A stretch of 64,000 nucleotides of DNA from NCBI RefSeq assembly GCF_057098645.1, contig NZ_CM169472.1; one strand, 5' to 3'. The position numbers are program-made. This document shows positions 26,101 through 29,100 of the stretch, in pieces. Position 1 is the stretch's first letter; each line of letters starts with the position of its first letter.

Positions 26101-29100
26101 AAACGCAGATCCAGAATCGCCTGAGCTTGCTGTTCGGTCAGGTAGTACAGACCATCACGCACGCCGAACTCTGGCTCCAGCCATTCCGGACGCGCAGCAT
26201 CGTCGCCAGCACGTTCGAGCATCGCGGCAACGTTGCCCAGCTGCCACGGATTAGCAACCAGCGCAGTTTTCGCTTCTGCAGGCGTCGGCGCATGACGGAT
26301 CAGTTCGATGATCGGGTCGATGTTCGCCAGCGCCACGGCTAATGCTTCAAGGATATGAGCACGATCGCGAGCTTTACGCAGTTCGAAAATAGTACGACGG
26401 GTCACCACTTCACGGCGGTGACGAACAAACGCCGCGATGATATCTTTCAGGTTCATGATCTTCGGCTGACCATGGTGCAATGCCACCATGTTGATACCGA
26501 AAGAAACCTGCAACTGGGTCTGGGAGTAGAGGTTGTTGAGCACAACTTCACCGACCGCATCGCGTTTCACTTCAATCACGATGCGCATACCGTCTTTGTC
26601 AGACTCGTCACGCAGCGCGCTGATGCCTTCCACGCGTTTTTCTTTTACCAGTTCCGCAATCTTCTCGATCAGGCGCGCTTTGTTCACCTGATACGGAATT
26701 TCGTGGACGATAATGGTTTCACGTCCGGTTTTGGCGTCAACTTCCACTTCGGCACGGGCGCGGATATATACCTTGCCGCGACCGGTACGGTAAGCTTCCT
26801 CAATACCGCGACGACCGTTAATGATTGCCGCCGTCGGGAAGTCCGGCCCCGGGATGTGTTCCATCAGCCCTTCAATGCTGATGTCTTCATCATCGATATA
26901 CGCCAGACAACCGTTGATGACTTCCGTCAGGTTGTGCGGCGGGATGTTGGTTGCCATACCTACGGCGATACCGGAAGAACCGTTCACCAGCAGGTTAGGA
27001 ATTTTGGTTGGCATGACGTCGGGAATTTTTTCCGTGCCGTCATAGTTATCAACGAAATCGACCGTCTCTTTTTCGAGATCGGCCATCAGTTCATGGGCAA
27101 TTTTCGCCAGACGGATTTCCGTATAACGCATTGCCGCCGCAGAGTCGCCGTCGATGGAACCGAAGTTACCCTGACCGTCTACCAGCATGTAACGCAGCGA
27201 GAATGGCTGCGCCATACGGACGATCGTGTCATAAACCGCCGAGTCACCATGGGGATGGTATTTACCGATTACGTCACCAACGACACGGGCAGATTTTTTA
27301 TAGGCTTTGTTCCAGTCATTGCCTAGTACGTTCATGGCGTAAAGTACGCGACGGTGTACCGGCTTCAGGCCATCTCGGACATCTGGCAGCGCACGGCCAA
27401 CAATGACCGACATCGCATAATCCAGATATGAGCTCTTCAGCTCTTCCTCAATGTTGACCGGTGTAATTTCTCTCGCAAGGTCGCTCATCTAACCGCTATC
27501 CCTCTACTGTATCCCGGATTCAAAGGTCGCAAATTATAACACAGCCGCGCAGTTTGAGGTAAACCTATACGCTTTATTCACATCCAATGCCTGATATACT
27601 CGTTTGTCTTGCCAATTACGGAGTAGAAGTGCCAATGAATGCCGAAAAATCGCCGGTAAACCATAACGTAGACCACGAAGAGATCGCTAAATTTGAAGCC
27701 GTCGCCTCCCGCTGGTGGGATCTGGAAGGTGAGTTCAAACCGCTGCACCGCATTAACCCGCTGCGTCTGGGCTATATTGCCGAGCGTGCTGGCGGCTTAT
27801 TTGGCAAAAAGGTGCTCGATGTCGGTTGTGGCGGCGGCATTCTGGCCGAGAGTATGGCGCGCGAAGGTGCGACGGTGACCGGTCTGGATATGGGCTTTGA
27901 GCCATTGCAGGTGGCAAAACTGCACGCGCTGGAAAGCGGCATTCAGGTGGATTACGTGCAAGAAACTGTGGAAGAGCACGCGGCAAAACATGCCGGGCAG
28001 TATGATGTGGTGACCTGCATGGAGATGCTGGAGCACGTTCCCGATCCGCAGTCAGTGGTCAGAGCCTGCGCGCAACTGGTGAAACCGGGCGGCGATGTCT
28101 TTTTCTCGACGCTTAACCGCAACGGCAAGTCCTGGCTGATGGCGGTGGTTGGCGCTGAATATATTTTGCGCATGGTGCCTAAAGGTACGCACGACGTGAA
28201 GAAATTTATAAAACCGGCAGAACTGCTGGGCTGGGTGGATCAGACCAGTCTTAAAGAACGTCATATGACCGGGCTGCATTACAACCCGATCACTAACTCC
28301 TTTAAGCTCGGCCCCGGCGTGGATGTGAACTATATGCTGCACACGCAGAATAAGTGAGATGGTTGTTTGGATTCATCCGGCAACCGCGCCAATGCCTGAT
28401 GCGACGCTTGCCGCGTCTTATCAGGCCTACAAATGCTCTCCGTAGGCCAGATAAGGCGTTTACGCCGCATCCGGCAATAGTGATGGTCAGACAGCGATTA
28501 CCATTTCACCGTCATCGACAAAAACCCTGCCGTCTGGGCAAAATCATCACTCCCTTTCTGCCACGCCACGCTGCCGCGCAGGGACACTCGCTGACTGATA
28601 TTGCCCGTGACTCCCACTTTTATTTCCCCCCGTTGCTTCACCGCATCGTCACTGATAGTGCTGCCATCCTCTTCAATTTCCGTCGAATGGGGATCGTGAT
28701 AATAATTCAGATCTAATGTTGGTATGACATGAACAGCGGTACGCCATTCGCTGTGTAAACCCAGCCGCGTCTGAATATCATCACCCTGCGATTGTGACAC
28801 GCGCGCACGGTTAGCGGCGGTAAAATCATCCTGCTGCACGCCCTGATAAATCACCTGCGCCTGCGGTTCAATCACCACACCACGCCCCGGTAACCACTGA
28901 TACCCCGCTTCCAGCGAGGCGATAATCCCCGACGAATGGTAATGATCCACGCCATCTTCATGTTCAGAAACATCATTGCTAAACCACGCGTACTGCAACC
29001 AGTTATCCAGCCAGGCCCCCTGCTTCTGCTTACCGTGCTGAAACCAGCTTGAGGTCAGCCCAACCGCATAACCGTGGTTCTGGTTATCGGCGCGAGTTCC

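Follow-up and report, generated by a model that had tools for sequence, protein, structure and literature searches.

The window (the whole 64-kb stretch of DNA that was analysed) carries gyrA, the gene for DNA gyrase subunit A. Over its full length it aligns collinearly, at 99.96% to 99.97% identity, with the E. coli chromosomes of strains C325 and O145:H28 RM12761. Mapping the annotated genes of the relatives' interval onto window coordinates gives the order mqo, yojI, alkB, ada, apbE, ompC, rcsD, rcsB, rcsC, yfaP, yfaQ, yfaS, yfaT, yfaA, and gyrA, followed by ubiG, yfaL, ypaB, nrdA, nrdB, yfaE, inaA, an MFS and LysR pair, glpQ, glpT, and glpABC, and then by an ISNCY transposase, the rhamnonate genes, yfaY, yfaZ, nudI, ais, arnBCADTEF, and pmrD. 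ORF search and translation place the gyrA coding sequence at 24861..27488 on the minus strand, with 875 codons and a stop. In a minus-strand reading of 27150..27520 its start ATG falls at 27488..27486, and the ORF ends at 24861.

Codon 83 of gyrA (27240..27242, minus strand) is TCG, encoding Ser, and codon 87 (27228..27230, minus strand) is GAC, encoding Asp; both are wild type. The initial annotation had reported the same codons at the same positions, and re-translation agrees with it to the base. The motif that it gave for the QRDR (gyrA residues 81 to 90) was likewise matched on translation of the minus strand. In a codon-by-codon table of the QRDR (codons 67 to 106; 27171..27290, minus strand), all 40 codons encode the residues found in K-12, and together with Ser83 and Asp87 they identify the allele as wild type. 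Compared with K-12 GyrA, the 875-aa protein has none of the known gyrA resistance substitutions. Other positions reported in quinolone resistance (A51, A67, G81, D82, A84, Q106, A119, and A196) hold wild-type residues because the whole protein equals that of K-12. R462, which we take to be a site of CcdB resistance, is also wild type.

Comparison with the gyrA gene of E. coli K-12 MG1655 (b2231, NP_416734.1) yielded no differences among 875 amino acids and 37 differences in nucleotide sequence (98.6% DNA identity), all of them synonymous, of which 36 change the third base of a codon and one the first. By the Nei-Gojobori method, this amounts to 37 changes in 635 synonymous sites (dS of approximately 0.06) and 0 changes in 1990 non-synonymous sites (dN = 0). 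That all 37 of the differences are synonymous indicates strong purifying selection. Three of them fall within the QRDR, where the window has GTT for GTC at codon 85, CGT for CGC at codon 91, and TAC for TAT at codon 100. While the two genes differ in these silent sites, they share an identical protein, the same neighbours (yfaA and ubiG), and an identical 5' region, the 146-bp gyrA-ubiG intergenic region (27489..27634, minus strand) matching K-12 base for base.

In E. coli gyrase, fluoroquinolones chelate Mg2+ through their C3/C4 keto-acid, and Ser83 and Asp87 hydrogen-bond two of the waters coordinated by this ion, thereby anchoring a water-metal ion bridge. The commonest resistance mutations, S83L and D87N or D87Y, disrupt this bridge (PMC9917921). 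With Ser83 and Asp87 intact, the anchors of the water-Mg2+ bridge would be kept in the gyrase-DNA cleavage complex, and with the remaining residues wild type as well, the encoded gyrase would be expected to behave as a normal quinolone-sensitive target. The reading that we favour, at a probability of roughly 97%, is that 24861..27488 is the single chromosomal gyrA of an O145:H28-related E. coli and encodes a full-length GyrA, identical to that of K-12, which is a normal target for quinolones. The identity of the gene, its sequence identity, and its genomic context were observed directly. We infer that the enzyme is drug-sensitive because the wild-type protein to which it is identical has been characterised biochemically.

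To place this genotype within the species, exact 36-nt versions of gyrA codons 79 to 90 were searched in 5426 complete RefSeq E. coli genomes, a collection that is presumably enriched for clinical resistant isolates. Wild type is the commonest single genotype, with 2652 genomes (48.9%), a count that is a lower bound given that the 36-mers are exact and other silent backgrounds are counted apart. Among these wild-type genomes the majority (2013) have GTT at codon 85, the state seen in the window, versus 639 with GTC. The double mutant S83L + D87N accounts for 1702 genomes (31.4%; 1371 with GTT and 331 with GTC) and S83L alone for 484 (8.9%; 412 with GTT and 72 with GTC); the remainder, about 590 genomes (about 11%), have other alleles or other silent backgrounds. 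These resistant alleles belong to the same gene and have the same QRDR background as the window, and both states of codon 85 occur among them, but where the window has TCG at codon 83 and GAC at codon 87, they have TTG at the former and, in the double mutant, AAC at the latter. The wild-type genotype found here is the ancestral and already known state and is statistically unremarkable. Its practical value lies in routine resistance genotyping and surveillance, and it raises no new question on gyrase or on quinolone action. One RefSeq E. coli record labelled as a plasmid contains a gyrA gene that has the S83L + D87N 36-mer; an assembly artefact or a wrongly assigned replicon is the probable cause.

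The initial annotation described codons 83 and 87 as a quinolone-susceptible genotype. This description is supported for the gyrA locus, where the whole protein is that of K-12, and its validity is confined to that locus; the phenotype of the strain is shaped in addition by parC, parE, gyrB, regulators of efflux, and genes carried on plasmids. A strain with wild-type gyrA could be non-susceptible through determinants outside the window, such as qnr, aac(6')-Ib-cr, qepA, or oqxAB, or mutations in marR, acrR, soxR, gyrB, parC, or parE. None of these loci is in the window, so the window is silent on them, and no plasmid-type quinolone-resistance gene occurs among the mapped genes of the 64 kb. 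Further, about half of the complete RefSeq E. coli genomes are without the wild-type 36-mer, indicating that resistance is common in the species. However, fluoroquinolone resistance of clinical significance in E. coli nearly always starts with a change at gyrA Ser83, which is absent here. Since this first-step mutation of nearly all fluoroquinolone-resistant E. coli is missing, high-level resistance is unlikely. RM12761, the nearest of the relatives examined and a proxy only, has wild-type residues in ParC (G78, S80, and E84) and ParE (L416, S458, and I529), encoded at 19324..21582 and 29152..31044, respectively, of the RM12761 stretch; this suggests a susceptible lineage and makes nothing certain for the source strain. 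On balance, we consider non-susceptibility through such outside determinants to be unlikely. Wild-type gyrA also fits what we take to be the general picture for Shiga-toxin-producing lineages of the O145:H28 type.

The nearest relatives of the gyrA allele are found in C325, Z1323HEC0422, Z1323HEC0399, and O145:H28 strains RM12761 and RM13516, with 0 or 1 DNA differences from the window across the gene, and in these relatives the 64 kb around it is collinear at 99.96% to 99.97% identity. At the DNA level the gene is indistinguishable (100% identity) from the gyrA annotated in C325 and in two further strains, and one silent base, at gene position 2034, sets it apart from that of RM12761. The window also has an additional 88-bp REP/BIME unit in the nrdA-nrdB intergenic region that each of the nearest relatives listed lacks. 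For this reason no record aligns without a break to a 25-kb query from the window, and placement of the strain stops at the O145:H28-related clade. Alleles at least 99% identical in DNA to that of the window were found in just 39 of 5425 records. At the nucleotide level the allele is almost limited to the clade related to O145:H28. It is conceivable, at long odds, that it is a segment imported by recombination or that it subtly affects expression; if true, this would provide a lineage marker in practice rather than new biology. We also consider it very improbable that the lineage-specific silent changes, including those at codons 85, 91, and 100, alter gyrA expression or mRNA structure enough to shift quinolone susceptibility. 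The small number of records with a similar allele is compatible with this idea, but GTT at codon 85 is the prevalent state among wild-type genomes, and a dS of approximately 0.06 seems unexceptional for silent divergence among lineages of E. coli. A literature search on the silent codon-85 polymorphism found nothing specific, and we know of no evidence tying these silent sites to susceptibility.

If the ORF were instead the paralogue parC (topoisomerase IV subunit A) or some other type IIA topoisomerase, the 83/87 numbering would be invalid. E. coli ParC is likewise a type IIA topoisomerase and shares the breakage-reunion domain, PF00521, which Pfam places at residues 32 to 507 of the window protein (E = 6.7e-163), and its homologous quinolone-binding motif, with Ser80 and Glu84, is near-identical (HPHGDSACYEAMV). 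However, when NCBIfam equivalog models for gyrA were compared with models for parC at their curated cut-offs, both gyrA models passed (TIGR01063, 1310 bits versus a cut-off of 877; NF004043, 1258.6 versus 902), whereas the parC_Gneg model scored 580.3, under its cut-off of 628.9. A motif search also located the GyrA box, QRRGGKG, in the C-terminal domain (residues 560 to 566; 25791..25811, minus strand). This motif separates gyrase A from ParC, which is without a GyrA box. The window protein has 875 aa versus 752 aa for ParC, and in the RM12761 chromosome parC lies approximately 870 kb off, adjoining plsC and ygiS, whereas the gene in the window is flanked by yfaA on one side and by ubiG and yfaL on the other, in the order yfaA-gyrA-ubiG-yfaL found in K-12 and O145:H28. 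Given the 100% identity to K-12 GyrA, the model scores, and the GyrA box, we reject a parC identity. A tblastn search with GyrA across the window matches only gyrA, with no paralogue in the 64 kb, and bears out the statement in the initial annotation that parC is outside the window.

Several further features belong to the gyrA product. Tyr122, encoded at 27123..27125 on the minus strand and preceded by Arg at residue 121, is the catalytic residue through which E. coli GyrA becomes covalently linked to cleaved DNA. Six matches to PF03989 repeats correspond to the six-bladed C-terminal beta-pinwheel. The best match among solved structures is full-length E. coli GyrA (6RKS, with 6RKU, 6RKV, and 6RKW related), aligned over residues 1 to 875. 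With GyrB, the protein would presumably introduce negative supercoils, as does the biochemically characterised K-12 enzyme to which it is 100% identical.

The possibility that gyrA is a decayed or silent copy, in which case the QRDR genotype would be irrelevant, is raised by the presence of pseudogenes nearby (yfaS and yfaQ) but is rejected as far as sequence can show. The frame is unbroken over 875 codons, no difference from K-12 changes an amino acid, and the promoter region equals that of K-12. In addition, gyrA is an essential gene and is present as a single copy in nearly all E. coli genomes, with a median of one place in each.

The region upstream of gyrA includes TGTTATAAT, a putative extended -10 element at approximately 27533..27541, in which TATAAT occupies 27533..27538. 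From the sequence and background literature, we infer that this hexamer is the gyrA promoter. A scan for consensus sigma-70 promoters reported only an internal chance site and did not report TGTTATAAT upstream of gyrA, probably because a good -35 hexamer is absent. Just past the gyrA stop are two hairpins on the minus strand, at 24824..24841 and 24784..24813 (spanning 24784..24841), of which a terminator scan reports the first. The RNA of this region folds at -31.6 kcal/mol (z = -4.8), and none of 200 shuffled sequences folds as well. The second hairpin is followed by UUUUGU and is the likely intrinsic terminator. Four ORFs lie inside gyrA on the opposite strand. Three of these (26355..27326, 27131..27406, and 25722..26342) were rejected given that differences between K-12 and the window are almost all non-synonymous in their frames, and one has a stop in K-12. 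The fourth (25252..25674) has 13 nucleotide and 0 amino-acid differences, a pattern explained solely by wobble positions that it shares with gyrA, and it was rejected as well. All four are artefacts of the long gyrA ORF, and none is a credible gene.

Elsewhere in the window, the ato operon (atoS, atoC, atoD, atoA, atoE, and atoB; approximately 7.3 kb), which lies between rcsC and yfaP in K-12, is absent. A 274-bp gap (15162..15435) separates rcsC (12312..15161) from yfaP (15436..16212), and the same order is present in C325 and RM12761. On the minus strand at 16217..22380, the frameshifted yfaQ and the alpha-2-macroglobulin gene yfaS, which has an internal stop, are pseudogenes according to the annotation of the nearest relatives; yfaS is a pseudogene in K-12 too. 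Tandem arrays of the REP/BIME type, with periods of 88, 113, and 114 bp and matches to the Rfam family naRNA4, are located at 35240..35496 (between nrdA and nrdB), 1..329, and 12119..12330. The MicF sRNA gene (8369..8462, plus strand; 116.8 bits versus a gathering score of 79) is upstream of ompC (6908..8035, minus strand). Under control of the mar/sox/rob regulons, MicF lowers the level of the OmpF porin, which adds to low-level tolerance of quinolones. The Rfam scan of the window gave micF and REP-type matches only, none bearing on gyrA, and a tRNA scan of the window gave none.

An intact MFS transporter gene and a divergent gene for a LysR-family regulator are present between inaA and glpQ (37722..39955), a position at which K-12 probably has only a remnant. 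At 46972..48177, an ISNCY-family transposase gene (rpnE-like) is followed by a partial ORF, and this region has 24-bp tandem repeats at 47743..47828 and 48008..48059 as well as an internal duplication of approximately 136 bp. The complete arnBCADTEF operon together with pmrD (56102..63712), which is involved in aminoarabinose modification of lipid A and polymyxin tolerance, is 99.9% to 100% identical to that of C325.
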